Origin: an uncultured Clostridia bacterium
GTDB lineage: Bacteria; Bacillota; Clostridia; UMGS1810
Length of the DNA: 64,000 nt
Assembly: GCA_934500875.1 (NCBI GenBank)
Contig: CAKSTL010000005.1
Location: forward strand, 71,671 to 135,670
Direction of reading: 5' to 3'
Of this stretch, positions 3,335 to 35,643 are shown piece after piece. Under the pieces are notes generated by a model. It had not been told where the DNA came from. It did no database searches and saw only the letters and a program-made list of their open reading frames with translations. Both the position numbers and the translations under genes were made by a program. The number at the start of each line of letters is the position of its first letter. The first letter of the stretch is position 1.

Positions 3335-3364
3335 AAAGCCGCTGCTTTTATTTTGCAGCGGCTA
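3335..3364. terminator. bidirectional hairpin terminator between spoIVB (+) and the oxidoreductase (-)
   Basis: The stem AAGCCGCTGC/GCAGCGGCT is flanked by A-runs and T-runs. Confidence 0.5.
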
Positions 3365-14945: not shown

Positions 14946-15044
14946 TTCTTTTGTAAAATCCTTTCAGTTAGCGCTATCATATTATTTTATCATAAATTTA
15001 AAATGCTGTCAAACAAGAATTTTAATTAAAAAAAGACTGCCTTT

Positions 15045-15091
15045 AGCCGCTCCTCGATAAGAAGGCAATGCTTACTTATCGAGGAGCGGCT
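15045..15091. repeat. imperfect palindromic element (17 bp arms, 13 nt loop), one member of a local repeat family
   Basis: The left arm AGCCGCTCCTCGATAAG and right arm CTTATCGAGGAGCGGCT are separated by the loop AAGGCAATGCTTA. The same arms and loop occur at 33988-34017 and 34239-34267. Confidence 0.6.
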
Positions 15092-15129
15092 TTAAAAAAT
15101 ATTTTTATAAGACAGTCCTTTTTTAAATT

Positions 15130-29230: not shown

Positions 29231-32200
29231 ATGAAAAATTTTAACAAGATTATCAGTTTAATAACTGTAGCAGTTCTTGTTCTGTCAATGATGGCAGTTC
29301 CCGCATTTGCCGTTACTGCAGTTAACACTATTCCCACATCACTCGGTGGAGAAAAAGTTGCTGTTACATATTATTCTGATGCAGCACTTTCAACCCCTAT
29401 TACTTCGGCAAATAAGGGTGATGAAATTTACGCAAAAGTAACACTTAATATTCCTACCGGTACGTTTTCAAAGCTTCAGGTAGCTCTCGCAGCTCAAAAT
29501 GCTACAATTGAGCAGTCTTTGGATACTTTTACTGCAAGTAAACCGGCAGAACTTTCAATATTTGAATATGCGGCAGTCGGCAACGAAATTTCTGCTGACA
29601 AAACAAGTGCAAAATTGTTTATCAGTAAGTCAACAGAAGGTCAGTTTGATTCGCCTAAAGACGCTTGGGCGGATTATGAACCTGATATGACAGGTCCGTG
29701 GTACAGCAATGTAGGAATTTATTCGTTTGATGTTAATGCATACAAATTAACAGTTACCGGCGATACAGGTAAAGTTGCCTTTAGTCGTGTATCGGGCGGC
29801 GAAAACGTACTCGAAATCGGTGAGTTTGACGTTGATAACTATACTACTGTACCTACTTCCTTCACTGTTGAAGATGCAGGTGTTACAATCGGTGGAAGTG
29901 AACCTGCAAAGAAAAAGGTATCGTATTCTGCTGCATGGACAGACAGCAGCGTAACATATGACGAATCTTTGGATGATGAAGCTCTTAAGGCAGCAATAAA
30001 AGCAAACCTCACGGTTAAAAAGCTTGTTGACGGCACACCTGAATCCACAAATCCGGTTTACGAAATTGTTATGGACAGAGCTGCTAAGACAATTAAAGTA
30101 ACTATAACAGATACGTTGCTTGCAGACGAAGAACTTGCAGTCGGCGCAGAAAAAGCATTTAATCTTAACTTTGATTATACTGCTAAAACGGATACTTATA
30201 CTCTTAAATCTATCAAATTCGGCGAAGAAGATATCACAGGTAAAACCGAATTTGACGTAGATTACACAAATTATAAAACTCTCGGCGATGTCGCAAATGC
30301 TATCACTGTTACAATGCTTAAAAACGGCACTGACGAAGTTCCGGCAGCGCTTGGCAGCGATTATGTTTTAAACTCTAAATTTGTTGAAAATGCAAATCGC
30401 TCAACACTTGAAATTAAATTTGAAGGCCTTGACGGTGCTATCAGCAGACTTAAAAACGAAGCTGCAAAGACATTTGTTGCTAACTGGAAAAATACAGAAA
30501 TTGTTTGGTCGAATGTCAAAGTTAATGTCCCCGACCCGTTCTCATTTGCCAAGAGTACAGTTTCGGAAAAGGTTATTAAAGACTCTATAACTGTTACAGG
30601 CGACAGAAAAGACGGCTTTAAAGACGTTGAAGAAGGCATTAAACTTACAGAGGGAGTACACTATACAGTTACGGTTCCCGCAGATTTGAAAAACGGCGAC
30701 GAGATTATCATTAAATTTAATGACGCTGTTGACAACCTTAGCACGGTAACTGATGTTACCAGATTTATTGAGATAACCGAAGACGAAATTACCTGGTCTG
30801 GTTATGAGGCTTCGTTTAAGGACGTAACAACATTTACAGGTAAAGAAACAGACGATTATATTAAGGGCAATGTTGTTGTTAAAGCGTTAAGAAGTGTGAA
30901 CGGCACTCCCGACAGTGAAAAAACAGCGATTTCGGGTTATGATGTTGCAATCACAAGAGCAGAGGGCGAAAACGCTTCAAAAGCTGTAATCACCTTCGGT
31001 GACGGCGAACACAAAGACGCTGCAGTTGACGATTTGACATTTACCGTTCAGCCGAATTACGATACGGTTGTTGCTGATATGCCCAAAACTTCGTTTGCCG
31101 AAGGCGCAACAGATGAAGAAATTTTGAATGCATTGAAAGTTACAGCTAAAAAATGGTTCTACGGTTCTGACAAACCGGAACTGGCAGAAACTGTAACACT
31201 TGAACGCGGTTCGGATTACACCGCAGTTCTTGAAGGCAACACAGTCAGAATTTCGGCTGCCGGTGCTGATTTTAATGAAGTTATCGGCAAGACATTTACT
31301 ATTGTTAAAGGCGCAAAAGCTACGGCTGTTATCGCATTTACAAATGCAACAGATAACAAAATCAACAAAGGCACAGCTTTGAAAGGTAAACTTTCTTTAG
31401 ATACCACAGAAAATATTTACGGCGGTAAAATTACACTTTCAACCACAAAAGGTGAATTTGATGAATTTACCATCAACAGCAATTGCGAGATCAAGAATGT
31501 AGATAAGACTGTTTCCGGTAAGTATACATTCGAGTTTACGAAAAAAGCCGGTGTGGCATCTGTAAGCGACATTGGTACATTCACAATTAACACTGATTCT
31601 ATGAACAAAGATGACGAAATCAGGGTTGAGGTTGAGTCTGTTGCTCTTGACACTGTAGGCGGAGGCGATTTTGTTGACGTTCCTTCGGCTAAGGGTGATG
31701 CGAAAACCGCTACCGTTACGGAAACAGCTCCTGCTCCGACAGAAGCTAAGCTTCCCGACGCTTCGTTTGATATCAAAACTCTCGGCGCATTAAATTCTGT
31801 TATTGACAGATTTAAAGACGCTGTTACACTTGTAAACACAACAGATTCTTCGGTTGTTGCAGATGCTGCCGCTCTTAAGGCTGCTATCACAATTGACGAA
31901 ACAGACCTTAATAACAAGAAACTTGTTATCAAGGATTTGACAGTTCCGGCTTTGAGCACAACAGCTTATACTTATGAGCTTGCTGTTGCAGTTCCGGGTT
32001 ACACAAAAGCTAAAGTTACATTCACAGTAACATACAACGAAACAACTAACGATTATGATGTTACAGGCGGTACAGTCGGCGAAGGCGCAAAGAAAAACAC
32101 AATCTATGCCGGCGACAACGATTCTGACAACACAATCACAGCTACTTCGGTTACAGCTAACGACTATGCTAACCTCGTTGCAAAATTCGGCGAAGCTGTT

Positions 32201-32335
32201 ACAGGAAACGAAGCATTTGATATCTACCAGAACGCAGAAACAACCATTGACCGTTACGACATTATGACTATGGTTTGGATGTTTGAAAACTATGGTATGA
32301 AACTTGTCAGCGAAGCAGGTATTATAGCTGACTGA
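29231..32335 (+). CDS. large secreted T/V/D/K-rich multidomain surface protein with a divergent C-terminal dockerin-like module
   Basis: The 1034 aa product has a signal peptide and repetitive beta-rich Ig-like sequence. The C-terminal GDNDSDNTITATS...DYANLVAKFG and IDRYDIMTMVWMFENYG align to the dockerin-like tail of the 28062 protein. Confidence 0.55.
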   Translation: MKNFNKIISLITVAVLVLSMMAVPAFAVTAVNTIPTSLGGEKVAVTYYSDAALSTPITSANKGDEIYAKVTLNIPTGTFSKLQVALAAQNATIEQSLDTFTASKPAELSIFEYAAVGNEISADKTSAKLFISKSTEGQFDSPKDAWADYEPDMTGPWYSNVGIYSFDVNAYKLTVTGDTGKVAFSRVSGGENVLEIGEFDVDNYTTVPTSFTVEDAGVTIGGSEPAKKKVSYSAAWTDSSVTYDESLDDEALKAAIKANLTVKKLVDGTPESTNPVYEIVMDRAAKTIKVTITDTLLADEELAVGAEKAFNLNFDYTAKTDTYTLKSIKFGEEDITGKTEFDVDYTNYKTLGDVANAITVTMLKNGTDEVPAALGSDYVLNSKFVENANRSTLEIKFEGLDGAISRLKNEAAKTFVANWKNTEIVWSNVKVNVPDPFSFAKSTVSEKVIKDSITVTGDRKDGFKDVEEGIKLTEGVHYTVTVPADLKNGDEIIIKFNDAVDNLSTVTDVTRFIEITEDEITWSGYEASFKDVTTFTGKETDDYIKGNVVVKALRSVNGTPDSEKTAISGYDVAITRAEGENASKAVITFGDGEHKDAAVDDLTFTVQPNYDTVVADMPKTSFAEGATDEEILNALKVTAKKWFYGSDKPELAETVTLERGSDYTAVLEGNTVRISAAGADFNEVIGKTFTIVKGAKATAVIAFTNATDNKINKGTALKGKLSLDTTENIYGGKITLSTTKGEFDEFTINSNCEIKNVDKTVSGKYTFEFTKKAGVASVSDIGTFTINTDSMNKDDEIRVEVESVALDTVGGGDFVDVPSAKGDAKTATVTETAPAPTEAKLPDASFDIKTLGALNSVIDRFKDAVTLVNTTDSSVVADAAALKAAITIDETDLNNKKLVIKDLTVPALSTTAYTYELAVAVPGYTKAKVTFTVTYNETTNDYDVTGGTVGEGAKKNTIYAGDNDSDNTITATSVTANDYANLVAKFGEAVTGNEAFDIYQNAETTIDRYDIMTMVWMFENYGMKLVSEAGIIAD

Positions 32336-32450
32336 TATCATTAAAGTGTAAGTAAAAAACAGTTTTTCTCACAGCGAGAGCGGAAAACCGTTCTCGCTTG
32401 AGGACTATTTAAACGATTAAAAATGTGAATACAATAGCGAGGATATACAT

Positions 32451-33956
32451 ATGAAAAATTTTAAAAAGCATATATCATTGGTTTTGGCACTTGCAATGCT
32501 TATATCGGTTATCTCGGTAAGCGCTTTTGCTGCCAATCCTTATTCGGAGTATACCCCATTGACGGGAACAATTTCGCTTGAGGACAATACAATCAAAATC
32601 AGAAAAGACGATACCTTTAAGGTTTATGTTTCGGCAAACCTTGACGATATTTCAAAAGACAGAGTTACGGCGTTCCATATTTTGGGAACTGTTTCCGATA
32701 ATCTTGAAATTGTAGGTTCGGGTTTCGCCGCTGATGAAGATTTGACAAAACTTCCCGCCGGCGGAGATATTGACGGAATAAACTATGAAAAAATGATTCA
32801 TAACAGCAAAACTTCGGATAAAACAATAGATTTTACCGCTGTTGTTATGAAAAATGCAGAAGGCAAAGCAATTGAAAAAGACGCCGACGGCAAAGCAGCC
32901 CTTATCTGGCTTGAGCTTAAGGCCGTAGGAACGGGCGTTCTTTCGGTTAACATTGCCGATTCGTATGTAAGAACAGCTTTTGAAGATAACGCCGCTGATA
33001 AGTTTTGTATGTCGGCAAGTTTTTCAAAGAGAACATACACAAGTGATGACGGCGACGGCAGACGTCCGACAGGAACAAGAGGAAATACCGGCAAGGCAGG
33101 TTCGATAGACAAGGTTACCGTTGACAAGATTGACGGCGCCGAGGTTTCAATCGACCAGGATAACAAAAAAGTTACAATCACGCTTCCCGAAGGCGCAAAC
33201 CTTACGGATTTGGTTCTTAGCATAGGCTATACAGGAAGCACAATTTCCTATAAAAAGGGCGATACAATCGACCTTACCGAGCCTAAAGAAATCACCGTAA
33301 AAGGCACCGACGGCAAGACTGTTACTTATACGGTTGAGGCAAAGATTAAAACAACCGAGTCGACTCCGAGTGACGACGGCAGCGAATACAGTGACGTTGA
33401 AAAGTCGAGATGGTCTTACGATATGATTGACGCCATGATTAAATCCGGACTTGTTGACGGATACGGCAAGGACGAGGCAGGCAAACTTATCGTTAAACCG
33501 ACAGGTCTTATCACGAGAGAAGAGGCTGCTAAAATTTCTGTGACGGCATACGGCGTTGAAATTGATAATTCGGCTGTTGCTCCGTTTGCAGACGCTGATG
33601 CAATCTCCGATTGGGCACGTCCCTATGTTGCGGCAGGCGCAAACCATCCGAACAGAATGGTAAGAGGCTACGCTGATGACAACACGTTCCGTGGCAAGAG
33701 AAACGTTACGAGAGAAGAGCTTGTAACTATGATTATCAATACGTTCGGTTTCGGTGCAGACGCTGATGCTAAACTTTCGTATGCAGACAATGACGAAATT
33801 ACCTGGTCCGCAGGCTATATTTCAAAGGCTGTAAGCCTCGGCGTAGTTCTCGGATATGAGGATAACACATTTAAACCGTCGCAGTATGTGACAAGAGAAG
33901 AAGCGTTCACAATGTTTGAGCGTGCTCTTAAAATTTACAGAAGTCTTACTGCGTAA
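32451..33956 (+). CDS. SLH-domain cell-surface protein with N-terminal cohesin-like domain
   Basis: A signal peptide is followed by a cohesin-like module (VTAFHILGTVSDNLEI...ALIWLELKAVGTG) and an Ig-like domain. Three SLH repeats follow (YSDVEKSRWSYD..., FADADAISDWARPYV..., YADNDEITWSAGYI...). Confidence 0.7.
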   Translation: MKNFKKHISLVLALAMLISVISVSAFAANPYSEYTPLTGTISLEDNTIKIRKDDTFKVYVSANLDDISKDRVTAFHILGTVSDNLEIVGSGFAADEDLTKLPAGGDIDGINYEKMIHNSKTSDKTIDFTAVVMKNAEGKAIEKDADGKAALIWLELKAVGTGVLSVNIADSYVRTAFEDNAADKFCMSASFSKRTYTSDDGDGRRPTGTRGNTGKAGSIDKVTVDKIDGAEVSIDQDNKKVTITLPEGANLTDLVLSIGYTGSTISYKKGDTIDLTEPKEITVKGTDGKTVTYTVEAKIKTTESTPSDDGSEYSDVEKSRWSYDMIDAMIKSGLVDGYGKDEAGKLIVKPTGLITREEAAKISVTAYGVEIDNSAVAPFADADAISDWARPYVAAGANHPNRMVRGYADDNTFRGKRNVTREELVTMIINTFGFGADADAKLSYADNDEITWSAGYISKAVSLGVVLGYEDNTFKPSQYVTREEAFTMFERALKIYRSLTA

Positions 33957-33987
33957 ATTTAAGTCTGACAGTACAAAGACCCGCTAA

Positions 33988-34017
33988 AGCCACTTCCCGA
34001 TAAGTAAGCATTGCCTT
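33988..34017. repeat. left arm (arm plus inverted loop) of the palindromic repeat family, split copy
   Basis: AGCCACTTCCCGATAAGTAAGCATTGCCTT matches the reverse complement of 15045-15074 with about 3 mismatches. Confidence 0.5.
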
Positions 34018-34238
34018 AAAAACATATTTTTTGCGCCTTTCTGCGTTAAAAAAACTCGCAATCCGTCAGGATTACTCGCTTTTTTGCCTTGAAATTCATC
34101 AAAAAATCTTGTTTTTAAGGTGCAAAGCAGTTTTGAATATCGGATTATTTTACGATTCAGACAAGAAATAAAATCTGCCATTATGCTTGCCGCATATGGC
34201 AGGTTTTTGACGTAGTATGAATTTAAAATACGGTTTCA

Positions 34239-34267
34239 AAACCAATGCTTTCTTATCGAGAAGCGGC
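34239..34267. repeat. right arm (loop plus arm) of the palindromic repeat family, split copy
   Basis: AACCAATGCTTTCTTATCGAGAAGCGGCT matches 15062-15091. It forms an inverted repeat of about 30 bp with 33988-34017 around a 221 bp insert. Confidence 0.5.
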
Positions 34268-34347
34268 TCAAGCTGCTCCTATTTAAGTAGGAGCAGTCGA
34301 GTGGGTTTTGTTTTTCTAAAGTAAAAATATACAACAGGAGCGATAAA

Positions 34348-35643
34348 ATGAAAAAATTTTTAACATCTCTGCTGATTGCCGTTATGCTTGCATCATCCTT
34401 CACATCTGCGCTTGCCGCAGCAACGCCGTATGATGAATATACCAAGATTTCGGGCAAAATCGAGCGTGACGGCTCGGGCGATATCAAGGTCGGCGATAAG
34501 GTGAGGGTTAATATCTGCGTAAATTACGGTGACAGCACCCCGATTGAAAAAATTACTGCGTTCCATATTCTCGGAAATTGCAGCGATAACCTTAAAATAA
34601 GCAGTTTTGATTTTTGCGACGCTTCAAAAAAGCCGCAGAATACGATAACTTCAAAAACGAAGGACCATACAATTGATTATCTTTCCGCAAACACGCCGAA
34701 CGAAGAGGCTGTTACGGCGGACTCCGACGGCTTCGGCAGACTTATTTGGGTTGAGTTTGAGGCGGTTTCTTCGGGAACGGCAAAAATTCACCTTGACGGG
34801 TCGTATATCAGAACCGACACGGCAGACGAGCCGCAGTATAAAAGATGTCTTTCGGTGAGCGATTTTGATATAACCGTTTCGTCAAACGGCAGCCCGGACG
34901 ACAGCAACGATAACAGCGGCGGTAACGGCAGCAGTTCCGGCGGCAGTTCGTCAAGACCTTCGGGAAACAAGGGCGGAACGGCTGTTTCTGGCGGAACGGC
35001 GAAAAACGACGACGCCAAGACGGACGATACCAAAACCGATAACACCAAAACTGACGAAAACAACGGCGCTCAGCCTGCTTCGCACAATTTTGCGGACGTC
35101 CCGAAAGACCACTGGGCATACGAGTATGCAAACTATCTTTTCGACAGGAAGATAATTTCGGGCGCAGGCACAAACGAATCGGGCGAGGTATTTTTAAATC
35201 CTGATTCGGCGATAACGAGGGAAGAGGCGGTTAAAATTGCGGTTGCGGCGGCAAATATTGCGCTTGATAACGAATTTGACCTTGCGTTTGCCGACAAAGA
35301 TTTTGTGTCAGACTGGGCAAAACCGTATGTTTTTGCCGGCGTTAAGAGCGGAATTCTGACGGGTTACGGCGAGGATAACACCTTCAGACCGAAAAATCAA
35401 ATCACACGTGAAGAGCTTGTTAAGGTAATTGTAAGCGCTTTCGGCATTGAAATAAGCGAAAATGCCGACGTTTCCGCCTTTTCGGACGCAGACAAAATCA
35501 CTTGGTCGGCACCCTATATAGCGGCGGCTGTCAAAAGCGAAATTATTAAAGGTTATGCCGACGGTTCGGTAAAACCGCAGAGCAGCGTTACGAGAATTGA
35601 GGCAATAACTATGTTTGCAAGAGCGCTCGGCAGCGCAAAATAA
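34348..35643 (+). CDS. SLH-domain cell-surface protein with N-terminal cohesin-like domain (paralog of 32451..33956)
   Basis: A signal peptide is present. The N-terminal domain is collinear with the upstream paralog (PY.EYT, ITAFHILGNCSDNLKI, RLIWVEFEAV, GSYIRT). An S/G/N/T-rich linker precedes three SLH repeats (FADVPKDHWAYEYANYL..., FADKDFVSDWAKPYV..., FSDADKITWSAPYI...). Confidence 0.7.
   Translation: MKKFLTSLLIAVMLASSFTSALAAATPYDEYTKISGKIERDGSGDIKVGDKVRVNICVNYGDSTPIEKITAFHILGNCSDNLKISSFDFCDASKKPQNTITSKTKDHTIDYLSANTPNEEAVTADSDGFGRLIWVEFEAVSSGTAKIHLDGSYIRTDTADEPQYKRCLSVSDFDITVSSNGSPDDSNDNSGGNGSSSGGSSSRPSGNKGGTAVSGGTAKNDDAKTDDTKTDNTKTDENNGAQPASHNFADVPKDHWAYEYANYLFDRKIISGAGTNESGEVFLNPDSAITREEAVKIAVAAANIALDNEFDLAFADKDFVSDWAKPYVFAGVKSGILTGYGEDNTFRPKNQITREELVKVIVSAFGIEISENADVSAFSDADKITWSAPYIAAAVKSEIIKGYADGSVKPQSSVTRIEAITMFARALGSAK

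Follow-up and report, generated by a model that had tools for sequence, protein, structure and literature searches.

What occupies the space between two neighbouring genes for SLH-domain surface proteins in an uncultured Clostridia bacterium, where the two halves of a palindrome lie 221 bp apart? The DNA that we analysed, referred to as the window, is a stretch of 64,000 nucleotides (contig CAKSTL010000005.1 of assembly GCA_934500875.1, positions 71,671 to 135,670, forward strand). An initial annotation, made from these letters alone, had grouped the split palindrome with an intact hairpin elsewhere in the window as a palindromic repeat family, and had proposed either a miniature transposable element with inverted repeats (MITE) or an insertion that had split a REP-like palindrome at its loop. 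Our analysis indicates that the sequence, which we named E1, probably belongs to a mobile, MITE-like family that targets terminator hairpins. E1 is a discrete, non-coding unit with terminal inverted repeats; it occurs at unrelated sites, is missing from matching empty sites, comes with about 2 added bases and lies within terminator hairpins.

The split palindrome noted at 33988-34267 is real, with its right arm ending one base further, at 34268. The arms and the 221-nt interior form one unit of 281 bp, which starts with AGCC and ends with GGCT (end sequence AGCCRCTCCTCRATAAG); the terminal inverted repeats of E1 measure 26-30 bp. The inverted repeat of about 30 bp stands, with 25 of 30 positions matching by our count instead of about 26. 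The interior had been described as AT-rich DNA poor in open reading frames (ORFs). Its composition agrees with this (33.5% G+C, against 42.9% for the whole window), but it is not featureless, since the 281 nt fold far better than shuffled sequences (plus strand, z -10.4; minus strand, z -11.8). The arm motif AGCCGCTCCTCGATAAG, with up to three mismatches, occurs at four sites in the window (15045, 15075, 33988 and 34252); shuffled sequences gave a mean of 0.11, and none of 100 reached four. Two inverted matches that link the split and intact palindromes, 15062-15094 / 33985-34017 (33 nt, 91%) and 15041-15073 / 34240-34272 (33 nt, 85%), are among the longest in the window. The intact hairpin at 15045-15091 has the perfect 17-bp stem and 13-nt loop that had been described for it, and its RNA folds at -36.1 kcal/mol (z -8.9). 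No further convincing MITE-like inverted repeats were found in the window. The reference strand of our alignments, E-forward, is the minus strand of the window.

Further copies at unrelated loci confirm that this is a MITE-like repeat family. We found nine of them, full-length or partial and 80-93% identical, in other gut Oscillospiraceae-type genomes and metagenomes. Copies are 276-281 bp long, full E1 elements 277-281 bp, and there are at least eight distinct insertion sites in at least four genome lineages, with two contigs of one sample bearing one copy each. Scanning a species-representative genome collection with the pattern CTYCYCGATAAGWARGCAWTG gave one true match, in the complete Clostridiales metagenome-assembled genome CP091729.1 (L005; related loci are given here by such handles). 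In L005, about 280 bp of arms plus interior lie between unrelated genes, and homology with the window copy starts at AGCC and ends at GGCT. A protein-collection search with the translation of a spurious 65-aa ORF led to two JGI contigs with further copies (L006 and L007), and a metagenome scan with a conserved internal 22-mer led to seven more loci in human-gut samples (L008-L014). The copy in L011 also occurs on contigs with an SLH protein named for Qingrenia yutianensis; Qingrenia belongs to the Oscillospiraceae, and this cultured relative appears to carry E1.

When eight full copies were aligned, mean column identity was 93%, L014 being the most divergent. The interior was conserved to the same degree as the arms, and the flanks were unrelated outside AGCC...GGCT. 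The genes that E1 adjoins are also unrelated, and it lies in both orientations relative to them. The window copy is about 92% identical to those in L011 and L013, whereas the alignable genes of these contigs are only about 73% identical to the window. Thus, E1 is far better conserved than its host genes, which suggests recent activity or horizontal spread. Viral-contig scans and BLAST searches of plasmids and phages gave no match to E1. Rfam gave none for the whole window at gathering score, and at E values up to 10 the best hit in the region reached 17 bits against a gathering score of 55. Metagenome contigs break within the element or exactly at its ends (position 1 of L002, L013 and L020). 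L009 is a chimera, with its left flank from the L011 site and its right flank from that of L012, which implies that one sample contains both sites. Breaks and chimeras in metagenome assemblies are evidently caused by the repeat. Separately, the flanks of E1 at L005 (5924-5960, reverse complement) and L010 (689-725) share ACTA..AATTTTGTGTAAA (37 nt at about 65% identity), perhaps another layer of repeats or a neighbour that E1 prefers.

The initial annotation had let its reading depend on further copies and on empty sites, and both exist: empty-site polymorphism was found for both window copies. Conspecific strains without E1 are 97-99% identical to the window. In L025 and L026, the 431-aa SLH protein is 99% identical to that of the window and the spacer between the SLH genes measures 108 nt, against 391 nt in the window; in the sister species L027, also without E1, it measures 104 nt. 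Alignment by hand shows that the occupied allele exceeds the empty one by 283 nt, made up of the 281-nt element and two further bases (...GCTAA[AGCC...GGCT]CA AGC..., with the element in brackets). These two bases, CA, and their counterpart AA on the other side probably represent a 2-bp duplication of the target in degenerate form (TT / TG on the E-forward strand). At the site of the 47-bp hairpin, exactly 50 nt are missing in five contigs of the same species (L015-L018 and L030, with MatE 97-98% identical), and the hairpin is present in L028, L029 and the window. The number of added bases from the empty-site pairs is +2 at E1 (AA/CA, the cleaner site) and +2-3 at the mini copy. Left flanks end in TT at seven of nine sites and right flanks start with TT at six; both do so at four, and at least one side does at all nine. 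Otherwise, the left flanks end variously in ATTT, TTTT, GTTT, AATT, AGTT, CTTG and AGAA. Two added bases could also mean that the target is not duplicated and that each end brings one extra base.

We also observed that substitutions cluster beside both insertion sites when occupied and empty alleles are compared (window 34269-34298 versus L025 4915-4944, and 15092-15119 versus L015). The first 30 nt on one side hold nine differences, versus about 1.4% further out, in strains otherwise 97-99% identical, and the stems hit by these substitutions remain paired through compensating changes. Conversion at insertion, an old allele, or the exchange of one micro-hairpin for another are candidate causes.

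Nearly every copy of E1 is flanked by the two halves of a hairpin made of an A-tract, a GC-rich stem and a T-tract. The halves read AAAAATGCCC...GGGCATTTTT at L007, CGGAGCG...CGCTCCG-T5 at L008, GGCGG...CCGCC-T5 at L011 and CAGACG...CGTCTG-T7 at L012. Empty sites, whether reconstructed or real, fold as hairpins of the order A-tract, stem, loop, stem and T-tract, and in the reconstructed folds of L007, L008, L011, L012 and L014 the insertion point is the apical loop. For the mini copy, the real empty allele is the terminator of an 81-aa ORF with the insertion in its loop. For E1 in the window, the fold of the empty allele in L025 places the insertion in an internal loop between an outer stem and an inner 10-bp hairpin, followed by the U-tract. 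The minus strand of 15026-15125 folds at -52.3 kcal/mol (z -11). The imperfect direct repeat AAGACTGCC / AAGACAGTCC on either side of the 15045 hairpin had been put forward as a target-site duplication. We rejected this proposal, as the two sequences are the halves of the host terminator stem (GACTG...CAGTC, with A- and T-tracts): both are present in the empty allele, and they pair with each other.

Some targets, moreover, resemble the two ends of E1 when these are abutted (GGAGYGGCT-TT-AGCCRCTCC). The likeness reaches 17 of 24 positions in the window (true empty allele) and in L008 and 15 of 24 in L011, against a mean of 10.2 and a maximum of 15 for the controls, about 115 terminator hairpins. 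In the right flank of L006, 10 of 11 positions match. The targets in L005, L007 and L012 have no likeness to the ends. An element end, 2 bp and an end-like arm follow one another at 34259-34280 and at L008 4020-4041. Elsewhere in the window, an ordinary terminator-like hairpin at 3337-3363 (AAAAAAGCCGCTGC-TTTTATTTT-GCAGCGGCT) begins AGCCGC like the arms of E1. Such stems seem common in these genomes, and this may explain the likeness between ends and targets.

The 47-bp hairpin is made of the arm, the inner 13 nt and the arm again, as its loop AAGGCAATGCTTA is identical to the 13 nt immediately inward of the 33988 arm in E1. On this sequence identity, it is better read as an internal-deletion derivative of E1. 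Were a deletion to occur by slippage between the short repeats AAG-AARGCA, where the folded interior has its base, this mini form would be the product. No site with both forms was seen, so the 47-bp unit may also move by itself. A 9-bp-stem hairpin beside E1, which had been placed at 34273-34296 and called independent, is indeed present, at about 34271-34298, but it is not independent: the empty allele already contains it, and its arms (AGCYGCTCCT...AGGAGCRG) are similar to the outermost 10 nt of the E1 arms. It is absent in the sister species L027 and L031, where a simple terminator (CCCGC-CTTGC-GCGGG) is found, which implies that the 9-bp hairpin was itself an earlier insertion into the loop. 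This 28-bp micro-hairpin might perhaps be another slipped deletion product, formed across the folded interior.

The consensus fold of E1 comprises an outer stem of 24-26 bp, a hairpin of about 113 nt, a mini hairpin of 3 bp and a hairpin of about 109 nt. Helix 1, the outer stem, has 24 pairs, which are 97.9% paired across eight copies, in keeping with the terminal inverted repeats of a MITE; across the whole fold, 97.7% of the cells in the aligned copies are paired. Compensatory changes were seen in nine pairs, four in the terminal stem and five in internal helices, against 1.5 +/- 1.1 after shuffling (0/500) and 0-2 when the partners were slid. The covariation in the terminal stem could equally mean that one protein binds both ends. 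Two internal hairpins, hp1 and hp2, have apices that look like terminators on both strands. A terminator scan matched that of hp1 at 34075-34058, and the hp2 apex of L014 has another sequence with the same form. One strand folds 9-19 kcal/mol better in six of the eight copies, with conserved G-U pairs on the minus strand of the window; we rejected this as evidence for an RNA or single-stranded DNA strand, as the asymmetry is absent in L007 and reversed in L014.

A second subfamily, E2, was found in a sister species upstream of a MatE gene, just 5' of its promoter (L019 174-449 and L020 1-276). It is 276 bp long, with the same size and three-way architecture as E1, and its perfect 24-bp terminal repeat, TAGCCGAAAGAAAGTAATCCGAAC, is unlike that of E1. 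The sequence common to both is the hp1 apex only, 80-85% identical over 52-65 nt. E2 lies in the same intergenic region as the 47-bp hairpin of the window; we do not claim the exact same spot, as the flanks are only loosely similar and AT-rich.

The 65-aa ORF mentioned above spans the element on the minus strand (33984-34181), and its frame is open in all copies, being preserved by a 3-nt indel in L005. We nevertheless rejected a coding role. The ORF has no Pfam match, its start ATG is lost in L008, L010 and L011, and its stop lies in the host flank. The protein database holds two matches only, both spurious calls on other E1 copies. E1 therefore has the size (below about 500 bp) and the non-coding nature of a MITE, and it is one by definition, except for the partner insertion sequence (IS).

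How would such an element move? We propose that a transposase encoded elsewhere would bind the terminal repeats and mobilise E1 in trans, making a 2-bp staggered cut at the T-rich centres of GC-rich palindromes. Palindromes like its own abutted ends would be the preferred targets. The route may be copy-out-paste-in, as in IS30; the behaviour of the element suggests this, not a family assignment, and we put forward the IS30-like mechanism tentatively, as a possibility that we do not favour outright. Insertions in terminators would cost little and persist, because E1 has two bidirectional terminators and its folding would rejoin the split halves.

Several points weigh against a transposase-driven MITE that targets terminators. 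About 400 kb of related sequence yielded no transposase gene whose terminal repeats match, and the window and 34 loci hold no transposase other than the IS200-like tnpA in L006. The 2-bp duplication is based on two empty-site pairs with extra changes near both, and TT stands on both sides at only four of nine sites. The genome scan is no census, as its pattern was too strict: most copies read CAATAAG or ACAACATTG. Most of the compensatory changes stem from one divergent copy, L014. Finally, a conserved internal three-way fold is needless for a MITE mobilised by a DDE enzyme and hints at a role as RNA or single-stranded DNA, which our explanation covers loosely, as terminator function. The fold itself might then be the functional substrate, with E1 homing to terminators by their hairpin structure in single-stranded DNA or RNA and replacing the host terminator. 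This would be a homing mechanism undescribed for elements with terminal inverted repeats, and E1 would be a portable terminator cassette spreading horizontally in gut Clostridia; we consider this unlikely.

A related idea, which we regard as improbable, is single-strand mobilisation by a HUH/Y1 enzyme, with E1 as a REPIN-like or palindrome-associated partner of an IS200/IS605 or RAYT transposase; it would travel as folded single-stranded DNA and home to hairpins at replication forks. Extreme foldability, the compensatory changes in internal hairpins, the hairpin nature of the targets and the better folding of one strand in six of eight copies (by 9-19 kcal/mol, with conserved G-U pairs) would all suit it, as would the Y1_Tnp gene directly beside the truncated copy in L006. 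However, E1 has true terminal inverted repeats of 26-30 bp and +2 bases, and to our knowledge IS200/IS605 elements have neither. No conserved tetra- or pentanucleotide stands 5' of the insertion, where the left flanks vary. These features (long terminal repeats, 2 added bases, no fixed 5' motif) are not those of an IS200/IS605 derivative. Nor does E1 look like REP or REPIN sequences, because the 17-nt arm holds no internal palindrome, unlike REPs, and pairs only with the other arm. The strand asymmetry is reversed in L014 and gone in L007, and a Y1 gene is absent from the window and the other loci. As to L006 itself (JGI 3300029783), an IS200-like element at 35-787, whose Y1_Tnp gene (169-648) encodes 159 aa and whose end hairpins are CCTCCGGTTCTACCGGAGG and CCACCAGTTTACTGGTGG, abuts a truncated E1 that is cut at about consensus column 104. 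This suggests that the IS was inserted into, or chimerically assembled with, an E1 copy, or that a deletion joined them. We rejected its tnpA as the mobilising gene, on the simplest reading, since its end hairpins are distinct, it interrupts the copy, the far side is not E1 and no homologue was found elsewhere.

The resemblance between targets and joined ends, the position of the insertions at palindrome centres and the flanking TT (on both sides at four of nine sites, on at least one at all nine) would also be expected of site-specific recombination between a circle with abutted ends and look-alike terminator palindromes. The enzyme would be IS110-like or a serine-type recombinase whose crossover is 2 nt, and we see a slim chance that this is so; there is an equally slim chance that TT is the crossover dinucleotide and not a duplication. 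No recombinase was found, and the targets in L005, L007 and L012 are unlike the ends. Too little of the sequence is unpaired for a guide resembling a bridge RNA, and long perfect terminal repeats are typical of DDE elements. The other proposal of the initial annotation, which takes the REP-like 47-bp palindrome as the elementary unit and 33988-34268 as such a palindrome with an unrelated 221-bp insert in its loop, is very improbable. The 47-bp hairpin does exist alone and is insertion-polymorphic, and the family does enter hairpin loops. Yet all other full copies keep arms and interior together with the same junctions, the interior is conserved like the arms, and at 33988 the 283 nt missing from the empty allele include the arms. 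In addition, no second solo palindrome was found in the roughly 400 kb, and the mini loop is inner arm sequence, as expected of a deletion. We give equally little credence to a structured noncoding RNA gene or a cis-regulatory leader of the downstream SLH gene that is not mobile. The strong conserved structure with covariation would be in line with it, but E1 is absent in strains 99% identical at the locus, stands beside unrelated genes in both orientations, holds no promoter-like site and has no Rfam match even at E up to 10. In our judgement, the probable explanation is a MITE-like mobile family whose targets are terminator hairpins.

Table. Features of the two E1-family loci in the window (coordinates in the 64,000-nt stretch; columns are feature, coordinates, strand and remarks).
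Feature	Coordinates	Strand	Remarks
E1, full-length element	33988-34268	-	Homology with copies at unrelated loci begins and ends exactly here; absent in L025, L026 and L027
Terminal inverted repeat, window-left arm	33988-34017		AGCCACTTCCCGATAAGTAAGCATTGCCTT; 25/30 match with the reverse complement of 34239-34268; helix 1 of the consensus fold
Terminal inverted repeat, window-right arm	34239-34268		...CTTATCGAGAAGCGGCT; pairs with the left arm
Two extra bases, CA	34269-34270		Counterpart AA at 33986-33987; occupied = empty + 283 nt
Internal hairpin hp1	34014-34120	-	Columns 149-257; apex 34048-34085 with A-tract, GC stem and T-tract; from consensus fold and pair counts
Internal hairpin hp2	34130-34242	-	Columns 27-139; apex 34170-34207 (AAAAACCTGCC...GGCAGATTTTATTT), the second bidirectional terminator-like hairpin
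Micro-hairpin	34271-34298	+	AGCTGCTCCT-ATTTAAGT-AGGAGCAGTC; also in the empty allele (AGCCGTTTCT...AGGAACGGTT); arms like the outer 10 nt of the E1 arms; with the element end, makes a junction of end, 2 bp and end
Host terminator of the 501-aa SLH gene, 5' half of its stem	33979-33985	+	ACCCGCT; partner AGTGGGT at 34300-34306, then TTTGTTTTT at 34307-34315; from the empty-allele fold of L025
Mini form of the element	15045-15091		47 bp, two 17-bp arms and a 13-nt loop; same ends and same kind of site as E1
Host terminator of the 81-aa ORF, one half of its stem	15035-15041	-	GACTGCC; pairs with 15111-15118; A- and T-tracts outside; mini element in the loop

The two genes that E1 separates belong to a three-gene surface-protein block at 29231-35643, which encodes a 1034-aa protein (no Pfam match) and SLH-domain paralogues of 501 and 431 aa. 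Recombination between the repeats had been offered as the origin of the SLH duplication. This does not hold, since the genes are old paralogues with 29% identity over their full length and are adjacent in E1-free strains and in the sister species. The gene order of the block is kept in Qingrenia-like relatives, but its sequences change rapidly, with 61-65% protein identity, versus much higher identity for neighbouring housekeeping genes. We infer that transcripts of the 501-aa gene would meet two extra terminator-like hairpins before the 431-aa gene, and occupied strains may express this second SLH gene differently.

With both empty and occupied alleles at hand, E1 is a well-delimited and recently active non-autonomous element in the poorly charted mobile DNA of uncultured gut Oscillospiraceae. 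Its regular placement within terminator hairpins and its two bidirectional terminators make it a natural test case for the choice of structured targets by small repeats and for their rewiring of operon 3' ends, and the cultured relative Qingrenia yutianensis makes experiments feasible. If anything could make E1 more than another MITE, it is that its internal fold is conserved, without explanation so far, in both subfamilies.

A limited literature search returned no description of the E1 family and no element with terminal inverted repeats described as lying systematically inside ordinary gene terminators. Bacterial MITEs such as Correia/NEMIS, RUP, ERIC, bcr1 and QMITE (PMC10969869, PMC3184786, PMC2229807) share with E1 a length below 300 bp, AT-richness, a non-coding and intergenic nature, terminal inverted repeats, very stable stem-loops predicted in their transcripts, polymorphic insertion and variants in size that arise by internal deletion. 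Unlike them, E1 adds only 2 flanking bases, prefers the loops of terminator hairpins and keeps a three-way interior across subfamilies with different terminal repeats. It also has no sequence relation that we could find in Rfam, plasmids or phages, and its hosts are uncultured gut Oscillospiraceae. The pneumococcal SPRITE (PMC3184786, PMC10969869) is likewise a small interspersed repeat with a motif resembling a rho-independent terminator, found near gene 3' ends, and repeats of this type also insert into one another. Compared by description only, E1 differs in its length (about 2.7 times greater), in its long terminal inverted repeats, in having two terminator-like hairpins and in lying inside pre-existing host terminators.

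IS30 makes 2-base direct repeats, inserts at the central 2 bp of near-palindromic hot spots and targets its own inverted repeats (PMC9333248). The 2 added bases and the palindromic targets of E1 are consistent with such behaviour, and the end, 2 bp and end-like hairpin at 34259-34280 recall the targeting of inverted repeats. The clustered changes beside the insertion are likewise reminiscent of the 'sequence conversion' reported for such targeting (PMC9333248). The likeness is behavioural only, as no IS30-type transposase or IS30-like ends were found, and it is drawn from nine sites that were partly judged post hoc. REP and REPIN sequences with RAYT, and the palindrome-associated elements of IS200/IS605, are hairpin-forming extragenic repeats like E1, and a Y1 gene lies beside one truncated copy. 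E1 differs from them in arms that are not self-palindromic, in true terminal repeats and in added bases, and the ends of the Y1 element in L006 are different. Insertion sequences that target REPs (IS1397 and ISKpn1, which enter REP loops, and IS621, ISPpu9 and ISPa11 of the IS110 family; PMC1525189, PMC3184786, PMC12288879) aim at extragenic palindromic hairpins, as E1 does. These are autonomous and aim at a repeat family, whereas E1 is non-autonomous and aims at ordinary terminators of varied sequence.

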